Virus record (IMG/VR): IMGVR_UViG_3300009415_000002
Span: 195 to 64,194 of that record
Origin: a virus
Strand: one strand, 5' to 3'
DNA length: 64,000 nt
Shown piece after piece: positions 11,378-28,387 of this stretch (positions within the stretch are counted from its first letter, which is position 1; the number at the start of each line of letters is the position of its first letter). A model generated the notes under the pieces. It was not told the DNA's origin, made no database searches, and saw only the letters and a list, made by a program, of their open reading frames with translations. The position numbers and the translations under genes are program-made.

Positions 11378-11415
11378 GATATTTTAGTCCTAATTTGTTA
11401 ATTGTTTGATTATTG

Positions 11416-11570
11416 CCAAGCACTATCGTGCCACTTTAAAAATTATTAAAGATAACATCCAAGTACTATCGGGCCCTTTGAAACCTTTTAGGATACTCAA
11501 AGAGTAACGCTAAGACCCATCGGGATATCTTATAAGAAATTTATAAGACCATTGCCAAGACCCATCGGGA
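11416..11570. repeat. Four degenerate ~15-bp direct repeats separated by AT-rich hairpin spacers
   Basis: ccaagcactatcgtg (11416), ccaagtactatcggg (11459), ctaagacccatcggg (11510), ccaagacccatcggg (11555). Confidence 0.65.
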
Positions 11571-11629
11571 ATTTTATTAAGAATCTAACGGGGAATCTTA
11601 GGCGAATTTTAGGGAATCACTACCGTCAA

Positions 11630-11965
11630 CCTCCAGCCGTTATTCGCTAACACCTACCTTTCTCTGCATCTCTTTCGAGACCGTTATTCAGTAGCTGCGC
11701 TTTCTCTGCACTGGGACGGAGTTCACATAATTTATTTAGCGGAATCAAAGCACGATTATTGTTTCACGACAGTGCCGTGATAGTTTAACGTCTTATCAAG
11801 GACGGAGTAAGTTAACATCATACTCATGATGGATAGTTTGTTTTAGCACTTAACTATCAACAGTGCGGTTTGTTTATTAGACTGAATAACCAGTTCAGTA
11901 GGGCAGGCTCACACCCCATTTATGCTTATCTTCGTCAGACGAAGATAGACAAGCCTGATCAGAAG
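11630..11965 (-). ncRNA. Candidate structured non-coding RNA / leader
   Basis: No ORF; serial hairpins (TATCTTCGTC/GACGAAGATA, GCACT/AGTGC, CATCAT/ATGATG, TCACGGC/GTCGTGA, TCTC-GAAA-GAGA) joined by A-rich linkers. Confidence 0.45.
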
Positions 11966-11969
11966 AAAA

Positions 11970-13171: not shown

Positions 13172-16100
13172 TTACACACCATAGTTAGCTCTATCAATGT
13201 TGGCTTGCTTAGCATCACGAATCAATCCGTGAAATTCACAAACTGCAGTTGATAGTTCACCTAACAAGGCGTTATCAAACATATGACTATAACCACCCTC
13301 GTTAAAGAGGATAGCTAAAGGCTTAGCCACATACTGACCGCTAGAAGCATACTCAGCTTCTTCAATGAAGCCCATTTCATATGCAGCACGTTGAGAACCT
13401 TGTGAGATTCTACGAAGAGCACCGAACTTAACAGCTCCAGTTACTCCACCTTGCCACCACTTCTTAACTTCACCAAATCCTTCAAGCTTAGGCATAACAC
13501 GAGTTACGATGCGTGAGCGGATAAGTTGAGTGAAGACTTCTTCAGGAAGGTTAACACCTACAATCTCTTTGATAGCAGCTTGAAGAAGAATAGCTCCATC
13601 ACACCACTCCTCTTTAGGAGTGTTGAAACGAACATCAACTTGCTTCCAGTTGCCCATAGGAGACCAAACCATTTCAGATTCAGTGTCAGTGGATGCAGCG
13701 TTTACTAAGTTGAAGAACAACTCAGCATTTTTGGAATATCCAGATAGGCCTAGACCTTCATAGATAGCACGCCAAGCAATAAGGCTAGCATCAACAACGG
13801 TGTTGAAGCGAGCTTCATCAGGACCAACAGCACGGTCAGCAGCATCAAAGATAAGCTTAGAGCACATACCATAAGATACACCTACAGCAGACTTATAGTG
13901 CTTAGCTACACGAGCAGCGAAATCACCAAGATAAGCAGAAGTGATATAGACTTTCTCGTTAGTCTCAGGGTCTTTTAACTGAGAGTTAAGAAGACAAGCA
14001 TTACCACGAAGGGATTTCTTACCTTGCTTGTCTTTTTCAGAGATGAAGTCAATATAAGGAACGTTAGCACCATATAGATATTCATAACCAGCGATGCCCA
14101 TTTTAGAAGCATTGATTGCGATTACTTTATCAGTGGTGATTTCATAACCAGCAACAGTCTCAAGGTTAATGACAGCAATACCATCGCCATCAGAATCACC
14201 TTCATTAAGAGCATGCCATACTAGTGGGTCAACAACTACGTGAGCGATTCCGCAGATTTGCTCATCATCAGTCAACACAAGACGACCAGCGCCTAGGAAA
14301 GGCATTGGAGTGCGAGTGAAGCCAATATAATAGTTAACGAATGAATCCCAATCTTTAACGCCTAGAAGACGAACGATAGGACAGTTACGGTTAAGAATAA
14401 CTGTTGGGATTCCATCAGCACTGTGAAGCATAGGGTGGAAAGAAGTGCGGACTTTTCCATAGACTAAGTCACCAGAGCGAGTTGCTTTCTTAAGAACGTT
14501 ATTTGATTCAACTGCAGTGTTGATGATTTTGCTATAAGCACTGTTAAGCTTACCGACGATATCACCATCAAACTGGTTGACTCTATTGATGAATAAGTCA
14601 ACAATAAAGTTAACGATAGTCGCAGTCTCACGAGCAGCAGCACCACTAGCAGCACTGAAGCTACCATAGATAGCGACTACGTTAAGGTCAAGTTTGATAG
14701 ACTTAACATTAGCACTTTTGCCAATGAAGAACTTATATTCATTTTGACCAGCGAAGAAGTTAGCAATAGAAACTAGAAGCTTACGGTGTTTGATTCCGAT
14801 AGTTCCGTTAGGGAAGATAGTGCTACTAACTGCAGACATGTCTTCAGTGGTTGCATCAATAACACAAGGAGCTGTGCTAGTGTTACCAGCAAATTCATTA
14901 GCTAAGGTTAAGAAAGACTTAGTTTTATCAATAGACTCAGTGAATAGAGCATCACCAAGTTCTTTGTCTTGAATAGAGACTGCTGCAGCACTTTCAAGAG
15001 TGAAGCTGGACTTGGAAACAGACTCAAGAGCAGTGGAGATTTCCACGTCAAATACGAGCTGACCAAAGATTACGTCAATAGTCTCTTCGACTAGGACATA
15101 CTCATATCCATCAAAAGTTGTGCCTTCGCTAATAACTTTAACGCTATCAAAGAAGGAGTGGCCTTCTTCTGCATTACCAGCTTTAGCTTGCTTTTCAAAC
15201 ACAGACTTAGCCATAGTCATACGAATCTTAACATCATTAAAACGCTTGGATTCTTTCCATTCTTGAACAGCGTTATTTTCATCATAGAGATTAATAACAG
15301 AACCGTCAGCACCAACTAATTCACCGTTAGCGGTGTGAAGGTTGAACTCACCTTGGTCATTAGCGAACATCTCTAGGAGAGCGCCATGGCCTTTAGTGCA
15401 TTCGTTGTTAAGCATGATATCCCAGTGGTTGTTTTGACCAACGAACTCAACTTCATAAGGAAGAGTTGTGAACTTAGTGGCGAAACGACGAGTCTTAACC
15501 CACTGAGTTGTTTCAACAATTTCAACATTGATAGAGATTTCAATGGAGTTCTCATCATTAACAATATTACCAACAGTTCCACTAACAACACGAATATTAG
15601 CAGCATCAGAGCTATTACGAACAAGTTTGTGCTTAACACCATCAACAGAGACTTCAACAATAGTTGCTTTAGGAGCAAAGGTTTGACCTTTAGCAGCATC
15701 AATCTTCTCTTGGATTTTGTTAACAAGAGCAAGTTTGTTGTTAGCATGGTTCATGAATTTATTACCAAAGATGGAAAGAGTGAAAGACTCAGATTCTTTC
15801 TTACCAACATAATAAGTGATATAAGTTTCAGGATTGATAATACCAACACCGGAACCAAAACCTAACTTAGAGTTAGTGAATGCAACATCCATCATTTTGC
15901 CTTTAGTTTTAGCGACTTCACCAGATTGAAGAGCGAATCCAAAGTTAGATGCTACACGGTCATCAAGGTCAGCACAATCATAGTTATTAGCAGCACCACG
16001 GTTGATGAGCTTAGCAACTTTGTTTACATCATTAGGAGTGATGATGCGGTCTAGTTCACGGTTCCAACCAAGACCTGTGGCCTCAGCACCGTCATTAATA

Positions 16101-17512
16101 GTGACAAACTTGATATTAGTTTTATCAGATGCAGCGACTATACCTTGAGCTAGACACCAGCCTAAGAAGCTAGGAGCTTGCTTACCACCAATAAACTCAA
16201 GACCAAAGTGGTCATCACTTACTAAGTTAATACCATTTGCATAGATTAAGTTAGTGCGAACGAAGTGTGCAATGTCATCAGCATCAGGCTTATGACCATA
16301 GTTATGCTCAGGCATAAATAGTTTTACAGCCAAGTTAATACGAGTCTCCAATTGCTTGGAAGTTCCAGCGAAAGCTGAAAGAGCAAATAGAAATACTGCA
16401 TGATTACCATCCAGAACCACAAATTCACTACCAACTTGACCAAAGCAAGAAGCTTTATTAGCTTTAAGAACACGACTGCCTGTGGATACAGTTGCATTAA
16501 GCATATCAATCTCTACACGGTCGCGTTTAACGACGGTGCCGGAGACTGACGCACAGTTGTTGAAAAGAAATCCAGTGAATTGAGCACGTTCTTCAGCACT
16601 TAAGTTATAAGTGGCAGCAGCAATAAGAGCAACCCAGAATCCGCCTGCGTTGACAGGAAGTTTATACTCAGGGTTAGAAGCATTGAATGCTACTCCAACA
16701 CATTCACGGTCACCGTTAGCTTTGATTTTAACAATAGTGAATGCAGCTTTAACAAACTTAAGAACGTTATGTGGGAAAGCAGTTAGGTTTGCGAAACCAG
16801 TTTGCTCATAAGCAAGAGAGCAAGGTGCTAGATTACCAAGTTTATTACCAAACAAAGCAAGGAAAGCATCACGAGATTCAATAGCACGAGCATTGACTTT
16901 GGACTGAGTGGCCCACTTCTTAGCAATCATTTCATCACTAGGGTCTTTGAAGTTACGTTTTAGCTTAGCAACATAAGCTTCTTCAGTTGTGACGTTAAAT
17001 AAAACATCAGCAATAATATCAGCAAATCTCACACCATAACCATTGTGATTAACAATGTTAGATACAATAGTGCTAAAACTAACTAAAGAAGAAACTTCAG
17101 AATAGTCAGCGTTGAATGCAGTGTTGAACATAGTGGATTGAACAGTTGTGTTTGTCATAGTGATTTTGTCCTCAGAAGGGTTAGTGTTAATGTCATTAGA
17201 AGGGTGTTTATCGAGCTTACCCTCAGCTCCATCAGTTTCTTCTTGCTCTACTGACTTAGCAACACAATTAGTGTTAGCCATATAGAATATAGCGTCTTCT
17301 AACTCATCAGTTAGTTGAATACCTAATTGTTCTAATACTTCTTCATAACAGTTAAGAACTGCATCTAAATAAGATAGATCAACATCAAGTTTAGAACTAA
17401 TATCTGCTTCTGCAGCGTTATGGATTTGGATCAAAATGTCTTTCTGAGTCATGTTATTACCTTCGTTAGTGTTGTTAGCAGAGTTGTTGGAAGCAGTGTT
17501 TGAGTTAGTCAT
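13172..17512 (-). CDS. Single-chain two-barrel (beta/beta-prime-like) DNA-dependent RNA polymerase, probable non-virion RNAP
   Basis: Ordered motifs GKMMDVAFTNSKLGFG (cf. beta GQNMRVAF), KTRRFATKF (cf. K..GRHGNKG), DIMLNNECTKG (cf. DIVLNP), GFTRTPMP (cf. NRQP), catalytic ALNEGDSDGDG (cf. NADFDGD). Confidence 0.85.
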   Translation of the reverse strand: MTNSNTASNNSANNTNEGNNMTQKDILIQIHNAAEADISSKLDVDLSYLDAVLNCYEEVLEQLGIQLTDELEDAIFYMANTNCVAKSVEQEETDGAEGKLDKHPSNDINTNPSEDKITMTNTTVQSTMFNTAFNADYSEVSSLVSFSTIVSNIVNHNGYGVRFADIIADVLFNVTTEEAYVAKLKRNFKDPSDEMIAKKWATQSKVNARAIESRDAFLALFGNKLGNLAPCSLAYEQTGFANLTAFPHNVLKFVKAAFTIVKIKANGDRECVGVAFNASNPEYKLPVNAGGFWVALIAAATYNLSAEERAQFTGFLFNNCASVSGTVVKRDRVEIDMLNATVSTGSRVLKANKASCFGQVGSEFVVLDGNHAVFLFALSAFAGTSKQLETRINLAVKLFMPEHNYGHKPDADDIAHFVRTNLIYANGINLVSDDHFGLEFIGGKQAPSFLGWCLAQGIVAASDKTNIKFVTINDGAEATGLGWNRELDRIITPNDVNKVAKLINRGAANNYDCADLDDRVASNFGFALQSGEVAKTKGKMMDVAFTNSKLGFGSGVGIINPETYITYYVGKKESESFTLSIFGNKFMNHANNKLALVNKIQEKIDAAKGQTFAPKATIVEVSVDGVKHKLVRNSSDAANIRVVSGTVGNIVNDENSIEISINVEIVETTQWVKTRRFATKFTTLPYEVEFVGQNNHWDIMLNNECTKGHGALLEMFANDQGEFNLHTANGELVGADGSVINLYDENNAVQEWKESKRFNDVKIRMTMAKSVFEKQAKAGNAEEGHSFFDSVKVISEGTTFDGYEYVLVEETIDVIFGQLVFDVEISTALESVSKSSFTLESAAAVSIQDKELGDALFTESIDKTKSFLTLANEFAGNTSTAPCVIDATTEDMSAVSSTIFPNGTIGIKHRKLLVSIANFFAGQNEYKFFIGKSANVKSIKLDLNVVAIYGSFSAASGAAARETATIVNFIVDLFINRVNQFDGDIVGKLNSAYSKIINTAVESNNVLKKATRSGDLVYGKVRTSFHPMLHSADGIPTVILNRNCPIVRLLGVKDWDSFVNYYIGFTRTPMPFLGAGRLVLTDDEQICGIAHVVVDPLVWHALNEGDSDGDGIAVINLETVAGYEITTDKVIAINASKMGIAGYEYLYGANVPYIDFISEKDKQGKKSLRGNACLLNSQLKDPETNEKVYITSAYLGDFAARVAKHYKSAVGVSYGMCSKLIFDAADRAVGPDEARFNTVVDASLIAWRAIYEGLGLSGYSKNAELFFNLVNAASTDTESEMVWSPMGNWKQVDVRFNTPKEEWCDGAILLQAAIKEIVGVNLPEEVFTQLIRSRIVTRVMPKLEGFGEVKKWWQGGVTGAVKFGALRRISQGSQRAAYEMGFIEEAEYASSGQYVAKPLAILFNEGGYSHMFDNALLGELSTAVCEFHGLIRDAKQANIDRANYGV

Positions 17513-17597: not shown

Positions 17598-18092
17598 TTA
17601 AATAAAAATGACAGGCTTTTTTCTATTTACCATTTTTATTCTTTTGCTTGGTTTATAAAATATAGACCTTAATATTTTAGAGCCATAACCAAACTTAGGC
17701 TTACCTACGCAAGTGAATAGATATGGATCTAATTTATTTTCTATAGCCTTTTTATTTACTTCTTTATTACATTTTCTTGAAGCATAGTCAAAGAAAAAAG
17801 ATCCAATTAACTGATTTTTATAATCACCTTTATTTATAACAGCAATCTGCTGATCTTCCTTTTCCCAGCCAGGACCTTCTTTAGAAAATCTTATATTACC
17901 TAACTCAATAGTCCATCTCTCATTCATAAAGTTAAATCTTATATAAAGAGATCTATCAGTCCTAAATAATACTGCATTACTTATTTCTAACTCTTTATTA
18001 TAGAAACAAAGATATAAAGTTTCTAAATTTAATAACGTGTCATTGCTACTATAGTTAGAAATATCAGCCGAAAACAAAATCTCATAAATCAT
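17598..18092 (-). CDS. Hypothetical protein upstream of RNAP
   Basis: 164 aa, GGAG Shine-Dalgarno. Confidence 0.65.
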   Translation of the reverse strand: MIYEILFSADISNYSSNDTLLNLETLYLCFYNKELEISNAVLFRTDRSLYIRFNFMNERWTIELGNIRFSKEGPGWEKEDQQIAVINKGDYKNQLIGSFFFDYASRKCNKEVNKKAIENKLDPYLFTCVGKPKFGYGSKILRSIFYKPSKRIKMVNRKKPVIFI

Positions 18093-18167: not shown

Positions 18168-18293
18168 CTACCAGTTATGCGTTACAAATACAACACGTGC
18201 TTTACGCACCTCTAATCCTTTACGACGTGCTCTACCTAAGATAGATAGACGCAGTTGTGTTTGGATAGATTGTTTGATTTGTGCAATAGTCAT
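18168..18293 (-). CDS. 41-aa basic peptide, cassette 1
   Basis: Hand translation MTIAQIKQSIQTQLRLSILGRARRKGLEVRKARVVFVTHNW; follows a repeat element like the other cassettes. Confidence 0.6.
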   Translation of the reverse strand: MTIAQIKQSIQTQLRLSILGRARRKGLEVRKARVVFVTHNW

Positions 18294-18355
18294 GGTTATT
18301 ACCTATAGATATACAAAATAAGGGTCCTAATTAGGACCCTTACGTGTTTATTTAA

Positions 18356-18562
18356 TTAATCATCTAACTTTTCCAAAATAGCTTTAAGAGCATTAAGTTG
18401 TCCTGAATATGACTTGACCATATCTTGATATAAAACTTTACGTTGGATTTTGTCGGCCTCCGAACCGTCCATAAAGTCAGTTTCCAAAAGCTTTTTAGTC
18501 TTATCAAGTTTAAGCAATTCCAAAGCAGCAATTCTAAGTTTGATTTCATTCTTATTTGACAT
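18356..18562 (-). CDS. Hypothetical coiled-coil protein, cassette 2
   Basis: 68-aa ORF. Confidence 0.65.
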   Translation of the reverse strand: MSNKNEIKLRIAALELLKLDKTKKLLETDFMDGSEADKIQRKVLYQDMVKSYSGQLNALKAILEKLDD

Positions 18563-18624
18563 AATGAGTTATACCTTATTATATATTACAAAATAAGGGC
18601 CCGAAGGCCTTATCTTGCTGAATG

Positions 18625-19062
18625 TTATACCCACTCATTACGTTCAGACCACACAGGACAATCAGAAGGCTTAACGCCAAGACCTGATGTGTCAATATGT
18701 CTGCTTTTTCTGCTGAACTTATAGATCTTACAGTTAGATGCTATAAAGCATCCACTGTCATAATCCATATCAGCAATGTCGATAACCTCGTCATAGACAT
18801 GAAGATGTTCAACCTTCACTCCATTAACAAAAGCAGGCGAGATTAGGTTGAGATTTCTCTCTTCACCATCACCACGACGTTGTAGTACACCTGTTAGTGT
18901 GACAGGCTTGTCCAACGCATTCTCAAGGACTCTGCGCTTGTGCGCATTAAGTTTAACTTCGTGTTGTCTGTAGATGGATTGAAACTGAGAAGAACGAGAA
19001 CCGTAACATAAGAATGCTGTAATTGCTTGATCGATGATTGTGTTGATTGTAGTCATGGTCAT
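18625..19062 (-). CDS. Hypothetical protein, cassette 3
   Basis: 145-aa ORF. Confidence 0.7.
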   Translation of the reverse strand: MTMTTINTIIDQAITAFLCYGSRSSQFQSIYRQHEVKLNAHKRRVLENALDKPVTLTGVLQRRGDGEERNLNLISPAFVNGVKVEHLHVYDEVIDIADMDYDSGCFIASNCKIYKFSRKSRHIDTSGLGVKPSDCPVWSERNEWV

Positions 19063-19133
19063 AGTTGTTAAAGGGAACTACCCTAAATAAATTACAAAAT
19101 AAGGGCCCTTATGGACCCCTACGTGTTTAATAT

Positions 19134-19352
19134 TTATTTAAAAGGAAAGAAGCAAATTTCATCACTGCCTTCTGAATCAAAGATATTAGTTTTACATAAT
19201 GGTTTACTAATACCGATTTCTTCACAGGCTGATTCATAATTCGCAAGTGCTGAGTTAAATATAAACCTATCCTGTGAAGCATTACTACGCTTAACAGCAA
19301 AATGCGCTTTGGCAAAAGCTCTACATATTTCATAATAGTCTAGTTTGTCCAT
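19134..19352 (-). CDS. Hypothetical protein, cassette 4
   Basis: 72-aa ORF; its upstream 32 nt are identical to those of cassette 2. Confidence 0.65.
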   Translation of the reverse strand: MDKLDYYEICRAFAKAHFAVKRSNASQDRFIFNSALANYESACEEIGISKPLCKTNIFDSEGSDEICFFPFK

Positions 19353-19419
19353 AAGGTATACCTTATTATATATTACAAAATAAGGGCCCCGTGGCCCTTA
19401 CAAAGATTAATATAAAGAT

Positions 19420-19722
19420 CTATCTAGATCCTGCACCAACACTACTAATAGGAGCATTACACTTAAAAGTGCGCCCTCCTCTACGTCGCCCTAAAGCACC
19501 ATAGTTAACAGTGATAATGTCTCCATCACGTTGCATGTCAATATCCTTCATTTTCACAAAGGAACCACCACACTCATACTTAACTTTAAGATCAGGACCA
19601 TTCCACTCAGGAACAATCTCAACACCTACAAGGTTAGGATGAGCAAAGGAAGCAAACCAACAAGTGGATGCAACAGCAATAGCAGATACGGACACGGAAG
19701 CAATTGATTTAAAGTTACGCAT
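19420..19722 (-). CDS. Putative exported protein, cassette 5
   Basis: N-terminal basic + hydrophobic signal-like sequence ending ASFA. Confidence 0.6.
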   Translation of the reverse strand: MRNFKSIASVSVSAIAVASTCWFASFAHPNLVGVEIVPEWNGPDLKVKYECGGSFVKMKDIDMQRDGDIITVNYGALGRRRGGRTFKCNAPISSVGAGSR

Positions 19723-19802
19723 AGTTTTACCTAATGTGTTTACAAAATAAGGGCCCGAAGGCCCTTGTTAGGTTTAAGATGATAGGGATTAGGGATTAGG
19801 GA

Positions 19803-20072
19803 TTACTTATTAACAATATGATTTGTTACATAGCACATTATTACTGAGGACCATAACTGAGATGCAACTGCATCATCTCCTTCCCAAACCATTTCTACTC
19901 CTTTACTTTTGTTAACTAACTTGATCTGACCTTTATAAGTTTCCACATTATTAGTGAACTTAGCAAAGGAATAACCTTCATATGTGAAGCTCATTAATAT
20001 ATCATTTTCATACTGAAGAGTCCATACTTGAGGTTGAGTTTTGATTGAACGAAGAACTTGTGAAACTTTCAT
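19803..20072 (-). CDS. Hypothetical protein, cassette 6
   Basis: 89-aa ORF. Confidence 0.65.
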   Translation of the reverse strand: MKVSQVLRSIKTQPQVWTLQYENDILMSFTYEGYSFAKFTNNVETYKGQIKLVNKSKGVEMVWEGDDAVASQLWSSVIMCYVTNHIVNK

Positions 20073-20141
20073 GTGATTTACCTTTGTGTGTTTATATTAC
20101 AAAATAAGGGCCCTGTTAAGACCCCTTACATAAGTTATTAA

Positions 20142-20402
20142 TTAAAGTTTTGATAAGTCTATAATACTAAATGGCAGATATATGACCATACCTGTGCTTG
20201 CTTTTCTAAACTCTTTAGCCTCACTAATTGGGAAGTTGTGGGAATAAATCCATATACCCATTTCGTCTCTTTCTGCAAGGAAGATATATTGTTCATACAA
20301 TCCCTGCGTCGCCGAGAGGCGAGAGACCCAATTTTGCTTTTTAATAAGAATATTTTCTGCTTCAAACTTAAAGTCTTCCAGTCTTTCATTAAATAAATCC
20401 AT
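20142..20402 (-). CDS. Hypothetical protein, cassette 7
   Basis: 86-aa ORF. Confidence 0.65.
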   Translation of the reverse strand: MDLFNERLEDFKFEAENILIKKQNWVSRLSATQGLYEQYIFLAERDEMGIWIYSHNFPISEAKEFRKASTGMVIYLPFSIIDLSKL

Positions 20403-20456
20403 AACTTGTTTTAACTATTATATACTACAAAATAAGGGTCCGAAGACCCTTAATTA

Positions 20457-20990
20457 TTAAGTTAATGTTTGAGCATCTATAGTTAGATAACCTGCAAAGT
20501 CTTTTTTACTAACAGCTTTATCTATCTTCTTTAACATTTTATAGATAGCTTTAGCTAGTTCAGCACTAGATAGTTCATCTAATACTTCTTCATACTCTAC
20601 ATATACTACACAAGTAATATCTACTACTTGTAAGATGGCCTCTTTTAATCTTTTATGCTTATCAACTTTACTAAGCATTTCATTAGGATTAACTGTCCAG
20701 TCTATGCCTATCGCTATGTTAGCCTCATCATTATACAGAATGTCATCTATAGTTAGAAAATGATCTAACCTACTTACTGTGGTTTTATTACTATATCTAC
20801 GAGCACTTCTATACCTATCAAAGTCAATACTTTTTATAGTATCACAAGCACTATTTACTCTATCTTTCATAGAGTTTATATCTCTTTCTTGAAGAAGAGA
20901 TAAGTTAAATGTTTTATATTTCTTTATACTGTTCATAGCTTTCTTAGCATTAATTACTATTCCTTCTAAGTAATCTCCATTGTATCCCAT
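20457..20990 (-). CDS. Hypothetical protein, paralog of 21051..21581, possible PD-(D/E)xK-like fold, cassette 8
   Basis: Shared D..L.(I/V)DD...IDWT...GYLT motifs. Confidence 0.6.
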   Translation of the reverse strand: MGYNGDYLEGIVINAKKAMNSIKKYKTFNLSLLQERDINSMKDRVNSACDTIKSIDFDRYRSARRYSNKTTVSRLDHFLTIDDILYNDEANIAIGIDWTVNPNEMLSKVDKHKRLKEAILQVVDITCVVYVEYEEVLDELSSAELAKAIYKMLKKIDKAVSKKDFAGYLTIDAQTLT

Positions 20991-21050
20991 TGTAGTTTCC
21001 CCTATTTTGTAATTAAATACAAAATAAGGGCCCGAAAGCCCTTATATAAT

Positions 21051-21581
21051 TTAAACTAGTTTTTCCATATTAAGAGTAAGATAGCCTGCATATTTTTGCT
21101 TACTAACCATATCTTCTACTTTTAAAAGAATTTCAAATAAAGCAGCCATAGCAAAGCGAGCTTTATCTATTTTCCTTTCTAATAAAACATGATTAGTAAT
21201 ACATACTGACAAACATACATCTACCTGTAGTTTGTCCATCACAGACTTACGTGATGTAAATCTATCTCTTTTTTGTTCTAACTTCATAGGATCATCAGTC
21301 CAGTCTATGGCAGCAAATAAAAGATTTCCATCTTCTAATTCACATTCCATAATATCGTCAACACCTAGTATGTAGTCCATACGTGTTTTAATACTATTAC
21401 CATCTTTCTTAGCATATTTATTAGCAGTACAATAATGAACACTATCATACTGTTTCATTTCTTCAATAGCTAATTTAATCTCATCTTCAAATATAGAAGC
21501 ATCTACTAATAAGCAGTTGTTTTCTAATAAAGAGCAAGTTGTTTGCATTAGGTTTTCTGTATCGTACAATGACATAATCAA
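21051..21581 (-). CDS. Hypothetical protein, paralog of 20457..20990, possible PD-(D/E)xK-like fold, cassette 9
   Basis: MDYILGVDD...AAIDWT...YAGYLT. Confidence 0.6.
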   Translation of the reverse strand: MIMSLYDTENLMQTTCSLLENNCLLVDASIFEDEIKLAIEEMKQYDSVHYCTANKYAKKDGNSIKTRMDYILGVDDIMECELEDGNLLFAAIDWTDDPMKLEQKRDRFTSRKSVMDKLQVDVCLSVCITNHVLLERKIDKARFAMAALFEILLKVEDMVSKQKYAGYLTLNMEKLV

Positions 21582-21633
21582 TTACCAGTATATTACAAAA
21601 TAAGGGCCCGAAGACCCCTACTTTGTAATGATT

Positions 21634-21680
21634 AATTGGCTAGAGGAGTTGCACCCCCATTAAACCGTCATGTGCCAATT
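21634..21680 (-). ncRNA. tRNA-like minihelix (7-bp stem stacked on a T-arm)
   Basis: AATTGGC ... GGGGG-TGCAACT-CCTCT-A-GCCAATT. Confidence 0.45.
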
Positions 21681-21682
21681 TA

Positions 21683-22201
21683 TTAAATTGAAAGGTAAGT
21701 AGCATATAATTCTACTTCCCATCTAGCTTCTTTAACTACAGACTCAGAATAATAAGAGTTGATGTATTTAACAAAATAATCATCAACTGCATTATCAAAC
21801 AATTCTTTAGAGAAATCACTAGTGAACTCATACTTATCTCCTACTTGAACACGGTCAAAAGAAGATAGATAAGAACGGACTTCATTTATTACTTCAAAGC
21901 ATAAAACACCATATCCTGTTAAAGAACGGTGTATAGCTTCTACTTCTTCTGCAGATACTTTAGAAGAACCTTCTTGTGTATCAACTTCAGATAAATAAAC
22001 TAATCCAGTTAAGATTACTTCTTCATTTACAGGATTAAAATCTAATCTTGTATCAGAAGTAAGTTTAACTTTATATGTTTTTGTATAAGTCTCATCCTCT
22101 ACAATAGTGTAGTGGCGAGAAGCAGATACAGTGCAATACAAGTTGTTAGCTTGTAGTTCACCCTCAGAAAGAACTTCTTTGGAGGAATGATATAAAAACA
22201 T
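21683..22201 (-). CDS. Hypothetical protein, cassette 10 (likely start MFLYH at 22201)
   Basis: The track start (22225) lies within the repeat element. Confidence 0.65.
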   Translation of the reverse strand: MFLYHSSKEVLSEGELQANNLYCTVSASRHYTIVEDETYTKTYKVKLTSDTRLDFNPVNEEVILTGLVYLSEVDTQEGSSKVSAEEVEAIHRSLTGYGVLCFEVINEVRSYLSSFDRVQVGDKYEFTSDFSKELFDNAVDDYFVKYINSYYSESVVKEARWEVELYATYLSI

Positions 22202-22252
22202 AATTTTACCTAGTTTGATGTACAAAATAAGGGCCCGATGGCCCCTACATTG

Positions 22253-22399
22253 TTATTCATCGTCATCATCAAGCAATGCTAGCTGATCTAGCATTACCTT
22301 CTGAGACTGAAACTGTTTATCCCATTGCTCCTGTGTGCTACCCTCTGGAAGAGAGCATTGTTCACCGGTTAGTGGGTTAGTTTTAGTTTCGTATTTCAT
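22253..22399 (-). CDS. 48-aa acidic peptide, cassette 11
   Basis: Hand translation MKYETKTNPLTGEQCSLPEG...LLDDDDE. Confidence 0.6.
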   Translation of the reverse strand: MKYETKTNPLTGEQCSLPEGSTQEQWDKQFQSQKVMLDQLALLDDDDE

Positions 22400-22459
22400 G
22401 ATTACACCTATATTATTGATCATAATAAGGGTCCGAAGACCCCTATTATGTTTAAATGT

Positions 22460-22786
22460 CTATTCTCCTTTAAGATTAAAGAAGTAAGACATAACCTCAA
22501 CGTGTAGCTCAGTTAAGTTCACGACACCAGGAGTAAAGTCTTTAACTTCACTCTGGATACGCTCTAAAGAATAACCGTTCTTGATAAGATTTTGTACTAT
22601 GAGTACATCATCTTCAATCCCGTCGTTATCCCACTCGTCATCTGTTAGGTCAAGACCTAAGATGTCGTGTAGAGCATCGTGACAGATCATCTTTCCTATG
22701 AGCCATGATGGTCCTTCCTCACGGAGAGTTAGGTCATTACGGTCACAGAAAGCTGCTGCACGTTGGTTTAATTTAGCGAAAATCAT
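22460..22786 (-). CDS. Acidic hypothetical protein, cassette 12
   Basis: 108 aa, Asp/Glu-rich. Confidence 0.7.
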   Translation of the reverse strand: MIFAKLNQRAAAFCDRNDLTLREEGPSWLIGKMICHDALHDILGLDLTDDEWDNDGIEDDVLIVQNLIKNGYSLERIQSEVKDFTPGVVNLTELHVEVMSYFFNLKGE

Positions 22787-22839
22787 ATCATTAAAAGGTA
22801 TAGGACAAAATAAGGGCCCGAAGGCCCAAACAATGTTAT

Positions 22840-23076
22840 TTATACAGTTTCAAAATTAACTAATAACTCACTTAAGTTACAGCTGTGTTGGATGCCTAGA
22901 TCATAAAGACCTGTTAAAGCTTCTCTTACAGTTGCATACTTTTTGTCAAGTTGGATCTTAGCAGATCTTTCTTCATAAGCACCAAGACCAGAAGTCTTAA
23001 TAGTGTTTAGTTCAATAGCATAACGGTTGTTTAGAAGTCTGTTGTCGATGTTGATAGAAGCAGTTAAGTTAGTCAT
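22840..23076 (-). CDS. Hypothetical protein, cassette 13
   Basis: 78-aa ORF. Confidence 0.65.
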   Translation of the reverse strand: MTNLTASINIDNRLLNNRYAIELNTIKTSGLGAYEERSAKIQLDKKYATVREALTGLYDLGIQHSCNLSELLVNFETV

Positions 23077-23142
23077 AATATACCTTTGTGTTTGTTAGTG
23101 TTTAATGAACAAAATAAGGGCCCGAAGACCCTTACATATTTA

Positions 23143-24139: not shown

Positions 24140-24231
24140 GATTGTTATATGTAGTAGTGTATGTGTATATAGGTGTGTATGTGTATGTGTATCTACCGTC
24201 GTCTATGGATAGATACACATGTGTGTGGTTA

Positions 24232-25416: not shown

Positions 25417-25525
25417 AGTAATCCTAATTTTATTTTGTAATTTTGCAAATCGCGGGGTGCCAGGGGGGTCCTAACTACCTACATAACAGCCTTATTTACC
25501 TCCGTGATATATTTTTAGGCTCTTT

Positions 25526-25554
25526 TTGGAAATCCTTAAACAGGGTGTTATAAT
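25526..25554 (+). promoter_or_regulatory. Sigma70-type promoter for the HNH/GIY-YIG gene
   Basis: TTGGAA-17 nt-TATAAT with extended -10 TG. Confidence 0.6.
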
Positions 25555-25581
25555 ATAAAAAATGACTACAAATATAAGATA

Positions 25582-26516: not shown

Positions 26517-26780
26517 TTAGAACAAATCGCCTAGTAATAAAATCCAGGGTTCCCATAAATCTTTATTACCTAACAAAATCCCGTAAGTAATTATTTGAGA
26601 GTTATAAAGATACATAGAAGGATAACCTAACCATAGTACTAATTTCATTGGAGGTTTAAATCTAACTATTTGTATTAATAACAACATGTGGCCAGGTATT
26701 AAAATATAGTCTACACATTTGCAATATAACCATAATGCAAAAAAGATAGGAAAAGTAACTATTGAGAGCAATGTATTCAT
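26517..26780 (-). CDS. Small membrane protein
   Basis: 87 aa, mostly hydrophobic, coupled to pyrG stop. Confidence 0.55.
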   Translation of the reverse strand: MNTLLSIVTFPIFFALWLYCKCVDYILIPGHMLLLIQIVRFKPPMKLVLWLGYPSMYLYNSQIITYGILLGNKDLWEPWILLLGDLF

Positions 26781-28387
26781 ATTTGATTTAAAGTATGTTG
26801 TAATAAACTAATAAATAAAGGATGAGGGTTAAGTAACGTAGATTTAAACTCTGGGTGATATTGAACACCTATAAAGAAAGGATGGGTAAAGTAATCCACT
26901 TCTATACTTTCTACAAGTTTATTATCAGGAGATAAACCACTAATAAATACTTTATCGCTTTTACTAAATAGTCCTCTATAACTATTATTAAACTCATACC
27001 TATGACGATGCCTTTCGTATATAAGAGAACTTCCGTATATTCTTTTTAATAGAGTATCTTCTCTAAGTATAGTAGGGTAAGAACCTAAACGTAATGTACC
27101 ACCAATAGGTAAATCTTTCTTTTCAGGCAGTATATCAATAATAGGATTTTGACAACAAGGGTTAATTTCTGTAGAAGAACAATCTTGTAAACCTAATAAT
27201 TGTTCTGCTAAGAAAATACACATTAATTGCATACCATAGCAAATACCTAAAACAGGTACCTTTTCATAAAATGCTTGTTCTAATAATTCTAAAATACCTG
27301 CAGTGCCAGATTCACCAAAACCACCTGGTATAACTATTGCGTCATAGCTTTTAACATCACAGTCAAAGTACTCACTAGTAGTATCTACAAACACAATGTC
27401 TAAGACACACTCAGTAGGCACTGAAGCGTGTAAAAGAGATTCTTTGATAGATAGATAAGAATCTTCTAAAGAAGCGTATTTACCTACAATAGCAATGCGT
27501 AAAACGGGATAGTTATCTCTATTATTATTTATATAAGAGAACTCGTGAGATTTAGAGTTAAAAGAATCGTCATAATTAGTTCTAGTAATAGAGAGCTTAT
27601 CTTTTAAAGCATTTAATAAACCATTATTAATAAGATAGTAAGGAATTCTATATAAAGAGTCTGCATTAGGACAAGGTATGACATAATCTTCTTGAAAGTA
27701 GCAGTACTTAGATAGTTTACGAATAACCTCATTATCAAGACAATCTTTTGAACGAGCAACTAAGATATCAGGATTAATACCTAGACTACGAAGTTCTTTA
27801 CAAGAGTGTTGAGTAGGTTTAGTTTTTAGTTCACCAGTATTATCAAGATAAGGAATATAACTAACATGAATATAGCAAGTATCATTTTCATCTTGCTCTA
27901 CTTGTATTTGGTGAAGAGATTCCATAAAGGGTTGGGATTCTAAATCACCTATAGTACCACCTACTTCTACAATTAAGTAATCGCAGTTAGATTGGTCAGC
28001 ACAAGAATAAATCCGCCTCTTAATTTCATCAGTTATATGAGGAATAATTTGAACAGTACTTCCTTTATAATAACCATCTCTTTCACGCAGCATAACAGAG
28101 TTATAAGCTTGACCAGTGGTAATATTATTAATTTTTGAAACAGGAGTATTAATAAATCTTTCATAATGACCTAAATCTAAGTCTGTCTCTCCACCATCAT
28201 CAGTAACAAAGACTTCCCCATGTTGTTTAGGATTCATAGTACCAGGGTCCATATTAAGATATGGATCACATTTCATAATAGAAACTGAGTACCCTAAATT
28301 AGTAAGGATATTACCTACGCTAGCAGCTATAATACCCTTACCTATTCCTGAAACAACCCCTCCTGTAACAAATATATATTTAGACAT
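26777..28387 (-). CDS. pyrG: CTP synthase
   Basis: GGVVSGIGKG, KCDPYLNMDPGTM, QHGEVFVTDDGGETDLDLGHYERF, KTKPTQHS, GICYGMQ, ERHRHRYE, QYHPE. Confidence 0.97.
   Translation of the reverse strand: MSKYIFVTGGVVSGIGKGIIAASVGNILTNLGYSVSIMKCDPYLNMDPGTMNPKQHGEVFVTDDGGETDLDLGHYERFINTPVSKINNITTGQAYNSVMLRERDGYYKGSTVQIIPHITDEIKRRIYSCADQSNCDYLIVEVGGTIGDLESQPFMESLHQIQVEQDENDTCYIHVSYIPYLDNTGELKTKPTQHSCKELRSLGINPDILVARSKDCLDNEVIRKLSKYCYFQEDYVIPCPNADSLYRIPYYLINNGLLNALKDKLSITRTNYDDSFNSKSHEFSYINNNRDNYPVLRIAIVGKYASLEDSYLSIKESLLHASVPTECVLDIVFVDTTSEYFDCDVKSYDAIVIPGGFGESGTAGILELLEQAFYEKVPVLGICYGMQLMCIFLAEQLLGLQDCSSTEINPCCQNPIIDILPEKKDLPIGGTLRLGSYPTILREDTLLKRIYGSSLIYERHRHRYEFNNSYRGLFSKSDKVFISGLSPDNKLVESIEVDYFTHPFFIGVQYHPEFKSTLLNPHPLFISLLQHTLNQI

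Follow-up and report, generated by a model that had tools for sequence, protein, structure and literature searches.

The stretch analysed here, which we call the window, comprises 64,000 nucleotides (nt) of the virus record IMGVR_UViG_3300009415_000002 (positions 195-64,194 of that record; all coordinates given for this DNA are those of the window). The source record is a 65.4-kb IMG/VR virus contig from a marine metagenome, with a CheckV completeness of 39%. Between 18313 and 23135, the minus strand of the window carries 13 copies of a short hairpin with a T-rich tail, which we call the class-1 element, one in each intergenic gap among 13 co-directional open reading frames (ORFs) of 41-177 amino acids (aa). 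A sequence-only reading of this DNA had described a strict alternation of 13 elements and 13 small ORFs, and that description is confirmed. Just downstream of the array lies the gene for a 1446-aa protein (13172-17512, minus strand), very probably a single-chain two-barrel RNA polymerase, as judged from its modelled fold. By its sequence, the source phage is a distant marine relative of Microcystis phage Ma-LMM01; its major head protein is 47% identical to the Ma-LMM01 counterpart.

Each element lies a few bases past the stop codon of one small gene. It consists of an A-rich flank, a GC stem (GGGYC/GRCCC) that the flank extends to 9-11 pairs, a loop, typically of 4 nt and reading UUCG in 8 of the 13 copies, and the tail TTATTTTGT. 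Element length ranges from 25 to 31 nt and stem length from 5 to 11 bp, and seven copies start with GTA(A/G)GGG. The exact 12-mer CCCTTATTTTGT is present in 12 copies, all on the minus strand between 18313 and 23120 and none elsewhere in the window; when up to two mismatches were allowed, it had 22 matches against 8.9 expected, a number reached in none of 100 shuffles. The thirteenth copy (22420-22431) is degenerate, with the tail TTATTATGA. The distance from tail to ATG is 18-32 nt, close as had been proposed but narrower than the 15-40 nt first given, and an AGGT-type ribosome-binding site precedes the start codon. Two copies (E10 at about 19358 and E12 at about 18571) share a stretch of identity across core, tail and leader that is real and measures 33 nt rather than the 32 nt first counted; because it is long enough, unitigs of the source assembly break at this repeat. 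The elements are as follows.

E1, 23109..23135, minus strand: hairpin GTAAGGGTC-UUCG-GGCCCUUAU with tail TTATTTTGT.
E2, 22805..22827, minus strand: GGGCC-UUCG-GGCCC with TTATTTTGT; left break point of the six-cassette replacement in the relative L022 (below).
E3, 22420..22446, minus strand: the copy with the degenerate tail.
E4, 22222..22248, minus strand: loop AUCG.
E5, 21595..21621, minus strand: class-1 element.
E6, 21019..21045, minus strand: UUCG loop closed by a U.G pair.
E7, 20427..20452, minus strand: 34-nt core 97% identical to an L022 element that heads a different gene.
E8, 20099..20129, minus strand: 7-nt loop; right break point of the L022 replacement.
E9, 19742..19766, minus strand: class-1 element.
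E10, 19375..19401, minus strand: shares the 33-nt identity with E12.
E11, 19094..19122, minus strand: class-1 element.
E12, 18588..18613, minus strand: bulged stem.
E13, 18313..18343, minus strand: 11-bp stem; homology with a relative from run X2 (below) breaks in the loop at 18329.

The hairpin is a feature of the RNA. When 32 element copies from four contigs were folded as sense and antisense RNA, the sense hairpin was the more stable in 30 (11 of the 13 window copies), with means of -11.8 versus -8.9 kcal/mol. Stem pair 12-23 covaries (C-G in 11, U-A in 9 and U.G in 5), and 81.6% of the cells of the stem alignment are paired, as against 26.7-64.6% with the partners slid. The earlier argument for an RNA hairpin, drawn from wobbles that work only on the minus strand, therefore holds. 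The GTAA/GTAG flank is explained by its pairing with the UUAU of the tail, which extends the stem. A consensus scan classed 10 of the 13 elements as terminator-like on the minus strand, and found 17 such sites where shuffles gave 6.0 +/- 2.6. The U-tract of the window copies, UUAUUUUGU, holds 7 U in 9 positions and is interrupted in all 13 by an A at position 3. We scored terminators in the style of d'Aubenton-Carafa, using our own rough implementation with ViennaRNA energies. These A-type copies are borderline on that score, both in the window (mean +1.1, 6 of 12 above 0) and in the relative L013 (mean -3.7); the U7-type copies (UUUUUUUGU) of L018 and L019 are positive in 11 of 11 scored, at +9 to +36.

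The relatives used for comparison, obtained by protein search and contig look-ups, are the environmental contigs L013, L016, L018, L019, L020 and L022-L025, together with Ma-LMM01 itself (L012, NC_008562). The four contigs L022, L023, L024 and L025 were found through homologues of C8, one of the array genes (cassettes C1-C13, listed below); L022 is a 1371-nt contig from run X2, a coral-reef metagenome of a different study. Class-1 copies stand on the coding strand only, in L013 (8), L018 (8), L019 (4), L022 (4) and L023 (5), and also in L024 and L025, and none were found in L016, L020 or the sampled Ma-LMM01 region. In L013, eight elements with the identical GGCCCTTATTTTGT form a one-gene array upstream of the polymerase gene. 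The L018 and L019 copies combine the tail TTTTTTTGT with a hairpin of the form GGGTC...GACCC or GGGC-UUCG-GCCC, and the tails of L018, L019 and L023 are canonical U7 tracts. Aligned on their tails, the copies share the block TT[A/T]TTTTGT and a preferred A after it: the GT is kept in 30-31 of 32 copies and the next A in 23 of 32, after which information drops to composition level, never above 0.6 bit per position. The window genome has a near-invariant tail, as had been noticed, but this does not hold beyond it: because relatives at about 46% polymerase identity carry TTTTTTTGT, the tail A is lineage-specific and the T-run with GT alone is general.

Several of these contigs also carry a second, separate double-helix element with the core TAAATAAG, which we call class-2. 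Wherever both occur, class-1 precedes class-2 (L019 6357-6460, L024 and L025; L016 9515-9630 is also listed), which is the order expected of a terminator followed by a promoter-like element. In wider searches, megablast of the array against 50,697 phage records returned no match, and a locus search with the polymerase among viral and Joint Genome Institute (JGI) metagenome contigs confirmed no related locus. IMG/VR, scanned for exact copies of GGGCCCTTATTTTGT, yielded 11 single, unrelated matches, which we rejected as generic terminators or chance. An Rfam scan of the window returned two tRNAs and nothing else.

The genes between the elements would make up a fast-evolving set with probable roles in host takeover or anti-defence, each delimited by a 25-35-nt regulatory repeat. 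Scans with Pfam and PHROGs, covering 10 cassette proteins per library (C3, C11, C12 and C13 were not scanned in both), found no significant family. The cassettes are as follows.

C1, 22840..23076, minus strand: 78 aa, no family; homologues in L013, L016, L020, L022 and L023.
C2, 22460..22786, minus strand: 108 aa; no homologue among the fetched relatives.
C3, 22253..22399, minus strand: 48 aa; 67% amino-acid identity to an L018 ORF and 72% DNA identity to L023, both flanked by a T-type element.
C4, 21683..22201, minus strand: 172 aa, no family.
C5, 21051..21575, minus strand: 174 aa; paralogue of C6 (29% identity, E 2e-14).
C6, 20457..20990, minus strand: 177 aa; homologue in L018 (41%).
C7, 20142..20402, minus strand: 86 aa.
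C8, 19803..20072, minus strand: 89 aa; homologues P0021-P0027 in five other contigs, headed by class-1 or class-2.
C9, 19420..19722, minus strand: 100 aa; homologues in L013, L019, L022 and L023.
C10, 19134..19352, minus strand: 72 aa.
C11, 18625..19062, minus strand: 145 aa; homologues in L013 (53%) and L020.
C12, 18356..18562, minus strand: 68 aa.
C13, 18168..18293, minus strand: 41 aa; 51% identical to an L016 ORF, with about 94% DNA identity in run X2.

C3 and C13 fall below the cut-off of the ORF track and had nonetheless been counted as genes; both are conserved in relatives and are therefore probably real. Between the C8 stop codon and E9 (19780-19802, minus strand) there are three tandem TCCCTAA units, which L022 lacks.

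Cargo exchange at the elements, which the sequence-only reading had proposed, is borne out by break points of gain, loss, replacement and reordering in L022, L023, L013 and run X2, and cassette order and content, for which a comparison across relatives had been suggested, are not identical. The clearest case is L022, which is 93% identical to the window over the 3' part of C1, its stop codon and the E2 hairpin and tail, up to a point exactly past the GT of E2. L022 then holds two ORFs that the window lacks, both with a class-1 element of their own in front, and identity (81%) restarts about 12 nt ahead of the E8 hairpin and runs on through C8, E9 and C9. Six cassettes of the window (C2-C7, 2.7 kb) thus stand opposite two unrelated ones in L022, with both junctions at elements. 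Other run X2 contigs lose homology at 18329 (the E13 loop), at 23142 (the upstream edge of the E1 gap) and at 23076 (the C1 start codon). In L023, a C8 homologue lies upstream of homologues of C1 and C3, the reverse of the window order, and the L013 array has homologues of 3 of the 13 window cassettes, with the genes downstream of the polymerase syntenic. A run X2 relative lacks the 164-aa gene at 17598-18092; 17545 is fused to 18120 there, and the junction falls between two similar CA-rich leaders, each from a class-2 element, so class-2 elements also bound an indel. Gene flux is seen here at single-gene resolution, in natural relatives from different samples that have swapped genes at repeats.

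We hold, with moderate confidence, that the elements form one family of terminator-type RNA punctuation marks that also supply homology for cassette exchange. The analysis shows their anatomy, their strand specificity, the persistence of the family in relatives and the break points at the elements; both the terminator-type RNA hairpin and the role of the elements as cassette boundaries are well supported. The elements split a hypervariable early or middle region, upstream of the polymerase gene, into one-gene units, and most likely the hairpin in the sense transcript would end or attenuate transcription and leave a protective 3' hairpin behind. Because an A interrupts the U-tract, the window copies are borderline and probably leaky terminators, so read-through could carry on into the cassettes behind them. 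In the DNA itself, the recurrent 25-35-nt core would provide homology for the exchange, loss and reordering of whole modules of leader and ORF. We infer termination itself, its efficiency and the polymerase that would respond to it, as well as recombination within the elements rather than mere tolerance of it there.

Several observations weigh against this account. Elements follow one another, 13 in the window, 8 in L013, 5 in L023 and 4 in L019, with no recognisable promoter between them, which is hard to reconcile with efficient termination, above all at the strong U7 copies, and which implies high read-through, a polymerase that ignores the elements or an element that itself restarts transcription. 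The L018 polymerase gene is headed by a class-1 element only, the first array gene of L024 and L025 is headed by a class-1 element with no upstream ORF to terminate, and C1 and C8, which follow class-1 elements in the window, follow class-2 elements in L013 or L023, as if the two were interchangeable. Genomes whose polymerases are only about 46% identical still share the stem sequence and the GT that comes after the T-run, a degree of conservation beyond what a generic terminator requires. It could also be that selection keeps genes intact, so that break points fall at intergenic elements even if no recombination mechanism favours them.

The promoter-free runs, the class-1 element that stands as the only conserved signal before the L018 polymerase gene, the class-1 elements before the first array gene of L024 and L025, and the interchange of classes ahead of C1 and C8 all speak for a fused element, a possibility that we entertain tentatively. 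The hairpin would end the upstream unit and the T-rich tail ending in GTA would be a compact promoter. Its start site would perhaps lie at or just after the A and might be read by one of the phage's own single-chain two-barrel polymerases, which would make every cassette autonomous. The conserved GT and following A fit such a promoter, and so does Thermus phage P23-45, where hairpin and T6G terminators alternate with the virion-polymerase promoter TTATTCCTTTA, the last base of which is at the start site (PMC10770324); the window tail TTATTTTGTA matches it in length and in the first five bases. In Ma-LMM01, a GC hairpin with TTTTTCYTTYTAGTG, a tail more complex than a U-tract, is present six times around gp064-gp067. 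On the other side, TTATTTTGT without a hairpin occurs 4 times in 131 kb on both strands against about 2.8 expected by our own composition estimate, none at an obvious unit start, whereas most P23-45 promoter copies stand alone; the TTTTTTTGT of the relatives has very low information for a promoter; and the G.U wobbles show that selection acts on the hairpin of the RNA-like strand, whereas in N4-type hairpin promoters it is the template strand that counts. Where both classes occur they adjoin, so a fused class-1 element would mean two tandem promoters, and our searches revealed no resemblance in sequence of these polymerases to gp64 or gp96 of P23-45. A host-type promoter finds no place here either: a sigma-70 consensus scan gave 35 sites in 13 kb (46 in shuffles), none of them in a consistent position at the elements, the 18-32 nt between tail and ATG leave no room for one, and the tail-aligned leaders show no second conserved motif. 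Of the earlier proposal of a terminator fused to a phage promoter, then, the intrinsic-terminator anatomy on the RNA strand stands, and no sigma-70 site or motif past the tail was found to accompany it. Taken as a whole, that interpretation is partly supported; the promoter within the element is plausible from the sequence, if doubtful at present.

Three other promoter candidates were examined and rejected. The tail CTTATTTT, read as the reverse complement of the class-2 core AAAATAAG, could have been an antisense promoter, but relatives with the TTTTTTTGT tail keep TAAATAAG in class-2, and on that strand C.A mismatches would break up the hairpin. A -7 box of the Bacteroidetes type (TAnnTTTG) would be one T short in the tail and is missing from the T-type relatives, and the genes carry strong Shine-Dalgarno sequences. 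TATA-like words past the tail are enriched (8 of 13 by eye), but their position is inconsistent and they are not conserved in relatives.

Two further explanations assign the hairpins a different function. In one, a polymerase that ignores the hairpins makes one long transcript, a nuclease cuts the AU-rich tail and the hairpin protects the 3' ends, much as RNase III sites work between the early genes of T7; we think this improbable, though less so than a recombinase origin. The hairpin is selected in sense RNA, the tail is single-stranded and AU-rich, with AUUUU fitting the preference reported for RNase E, hairpins and genes alternate strictly with no promoters between, and the sense-strand wobble bias of class-2 (36 G.U against 13 A.C) suggests long transcripts through regulatory elements. 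Yet the GC hairpin and U7 of L018, L019 and L023 form a canonical intrinsic terminator, and a polymerase that ignores it is an extra hypothesis; stems of 5-11 bp are too short for RNase III, and no nuclease was identified to go with the scheme. The other explanation would make the elements sites of a dedicated recombinase or transposase, resembling integron attC sites or repetitive extragenic palindromic (REP) sequences mobilised by REP-associated tyrosine transposases (RAYTs), with any transcriptional role secondary. Same-orientation one-gene cassettes separated by a conserved imperfect palindrome, the turnover of cassette content at the elements and the likeness of the GTA(A/G)GGG start of seven copies to the REP GTAG head lend it some appeal, but that flank is accounted for by its pairing with the tail, and at 25-31 nt the elements are far below the 57-141 bp of attC and have no R''/L''/L'/R' layout. 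The two L022 homology boundaries lie at opposite element edges, with no single fixed crossover point, and the contig has no PF00589 tyrosine recombinase and no PF01797 Y1 transposase, which in a contig 39% complete is weak evidence. Integron-like and REP/RAYT-like origins are accordingly unlikely, and we give them very little credence.

Against this background, the terminator-type family that we favour can be set beside known systems. Intrinsic terminators likewise have a GC-rich hairpin followed directly by a U-tract, just past a stop codon on the coding strand, with an upstream A-rich flank that pairs with the first U residues; the array differs in having one past every gene, in a stem sequence and a GU after the U-run that are conserved across genomes and, in the window, in the interruption of the U-tract at position 3. 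In the early region of T7, RNase III sites also place one hairpin at each boundary between co-directional genes, but these are about 20 bp of double strand, as opposed to 5-11-bp stems with a U-tract. Shuffling mediated by promoter/stem-loop cassettes (PeSLs) has been described in T4-type phages (PMC4122927; PeSLs also in PMC2839356). The likeness extends to a short stem-loop that recurs between the small orphan genes of a hyperplastic region, to an almost identical hairpin in the Vibrio phage nt-1 version (A3-4 G3-loop-C3 T3-4) and to indel, replacement and displacement junctions between close relatives at the elements. PeSLs are, however, defined by a sigma-70-like early promoter (-35/N17/-10) between the stem-loop and the ribosome-binding site, which was not found in the array, and the window phage is not T4-like and encodes its own predicted two-barrel RNA polymerase. 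With the array, the PeSL idea would reach past T4-like phages and take in phages that have a single-chain RNA polymerase of their own.

P23-45 is a better precedent than the T4 PeSLs for a terminator fused to the promoter of a phage polymerase. ONT-cappable-seq mapped one-gene pre-early units there that are bounded by a conserved hairpin and T6G terminator (PMC10770324), and two pairs of termination and start sites, TTS1/TSS2 and TTS8/TSS11, are only 6 nt apart (PMC10770324 Supplementary Data 1), so the terminator T-tract is part of the promoter. In both phages, small genes near a polymerase gene (that of the non-virion polymerase in P23-45) are bounded by a conserved GC hairpin, T-run and G, and in some P23-45 units the T-run merges with the 11-nt T-rich promoter. 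P23-45 has virion and non-virion single-chain two-barrel polymerases; the window has the 1446-aa predicted one. In P23-45 the promoter motif is distinct from the terminator, as a rule lies 34-49 nt downstream and also occurs where there is no hairpin, whereas the array has no independent promoter motif; the polymerases have no detectable sequence similarity, the host and virion type are others, and function was mapped there while the window is known from sequence alone. It is conceivable, if rather uncertain, that each element is a dual terminator-promoter read by one of two phage single-chain two-barrel polymerases and that the same 25-35 nt serve as an inter-phage crossover site. Small genes would in that case be plug-and-play units, each self-contained, and the Ma-LMM01 group would gain a transcription system of its own with at least two classes of element.

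The case for the polymerase itself comes from a fold search. The 1446-aa protein is 31% identical to Ma-LMM01 gp064, annotated as hypothetical, and sequence and profile searches of it against PDB sequences found no match. For residues 400-1300, the predicted fold (moderate quality, predicted local distance difference test (pLDDT) 60) had beta/Rpb2 subunits as all of its top 50 PDB matches, the best at E 6e-5, spanning bacterial, archaeal, eukaryotic and poxviral polymerases. A signature RTPMP...(37 aa)...DSDGD is invariant across 11 homologues. Protein search found homologues 43-65% identical in environmental contigs, with L013 at 65% and L018 and L019 at about 46-47%. Part of a giant 4708-aa protein is weakly similar to Ma-LMM01 gp080, and a sequence search with the giant protein against PDB sequences gave no match.

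Relatives of the bloom-controlling Microcystis phage Ma-LMM01 constitute a little-studied group of large marine and freshwater phages. The group has been published as fully dependent on the host polymerase, and the Ma-LMM01 transcriptome was interpreted as a programme run purely through host sigma-70 promoters, with no phage-specific motifs reported (PMC5780444). The six Ma-LMM01 copies of the GC hairpin with TTTTTCYTTYTAGTG lie at NC_008562 43757-51288 on the minus strand, and none occur elsewhere in the 162-kb genome. They are found about 20-25 nt ahead of the polymerase homologue gp064 and of gp065, gp066 and gp067, and also just past gp064; these four genes fall in one temporal class, the 'middle' cluster B5 (PMC5780444 supplement). 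The class-1 family, the class-2 element with TAAATAAG and the six Ma-LMM01 copies offer concrete starting points for dissecting the transcription programme of the group.

The class-2 element comprises a 7-bp stem with an 8-nt loop, one base, TAAATAAG or AAAATAAG, a T, 8 nt complementary to the whole loop and a CA-rich leader. In the window, its cores lie on the minus strand at about 25180, 23801, 18135, 17567 and 13112, and it is also present in L013, L016, L018, L019, L020, L023, L024 and L025. It heads the polymerase gene in most relatives and nearly every small gene in L016. The 39 distinct instances come from 9 contigs and are unrelated in the sequences of stem and loop; among them, stem 1 has 251 Watson-Crick, 13 G.U and 3 A.C pairs and helix 2 has 258 Watson-Crick, 23 G.U and 10 A.C pairs. 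This is massive sense-strand covariation, and the topology is that of an H-type pseudoknot or of two mutually exclusive hairpins. We know of no described counterpart.

Other intergenic motifs recur around the array and in its relatives. A 'start element' with TATGTAGGTAG..GGACCCCCCTGGCACCCC stands at the head of the early array, in a divergent intergenic region (window 25417-25581, read on the minus strand; L016 1655-1962, L020 1-229, L024 9707-10000 and L025 2131-2545), and may be the first promoter or a DNA-end signal. Another element carries the loop motif CCATAGACGWCGG in a hairpin followed by a CA-rich leader (window 24140-24231, minus strand; L013 626-731; L023 717-822). The motif GTCCTGAnTATGACnTTAAACTA is repeated before some small genes in relatives (L013 5039-5095; L016 3942-4060; L018 2693-2768 and 3033-3110; L020 11497-12314) and was not seen in the window array. 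Elsewhere in the window, a CTP synthase (PyrG) homologue (26777-28387, minus strand) is 43-47% identical to bacterial-type sequences in various phage records. Downstream of the polymerase operon, an ORF-free region (11378-11969, minus strand), 500-800 nt in size and conserved in position in relatives (L013 11202-11693; L016 18998-19624; L019 7992-8264; L020 11497-12314), carries the common word CCCTAAAATTCGCCTA and internal repeats and might encode a structured RNA or serve in replication or packaging.

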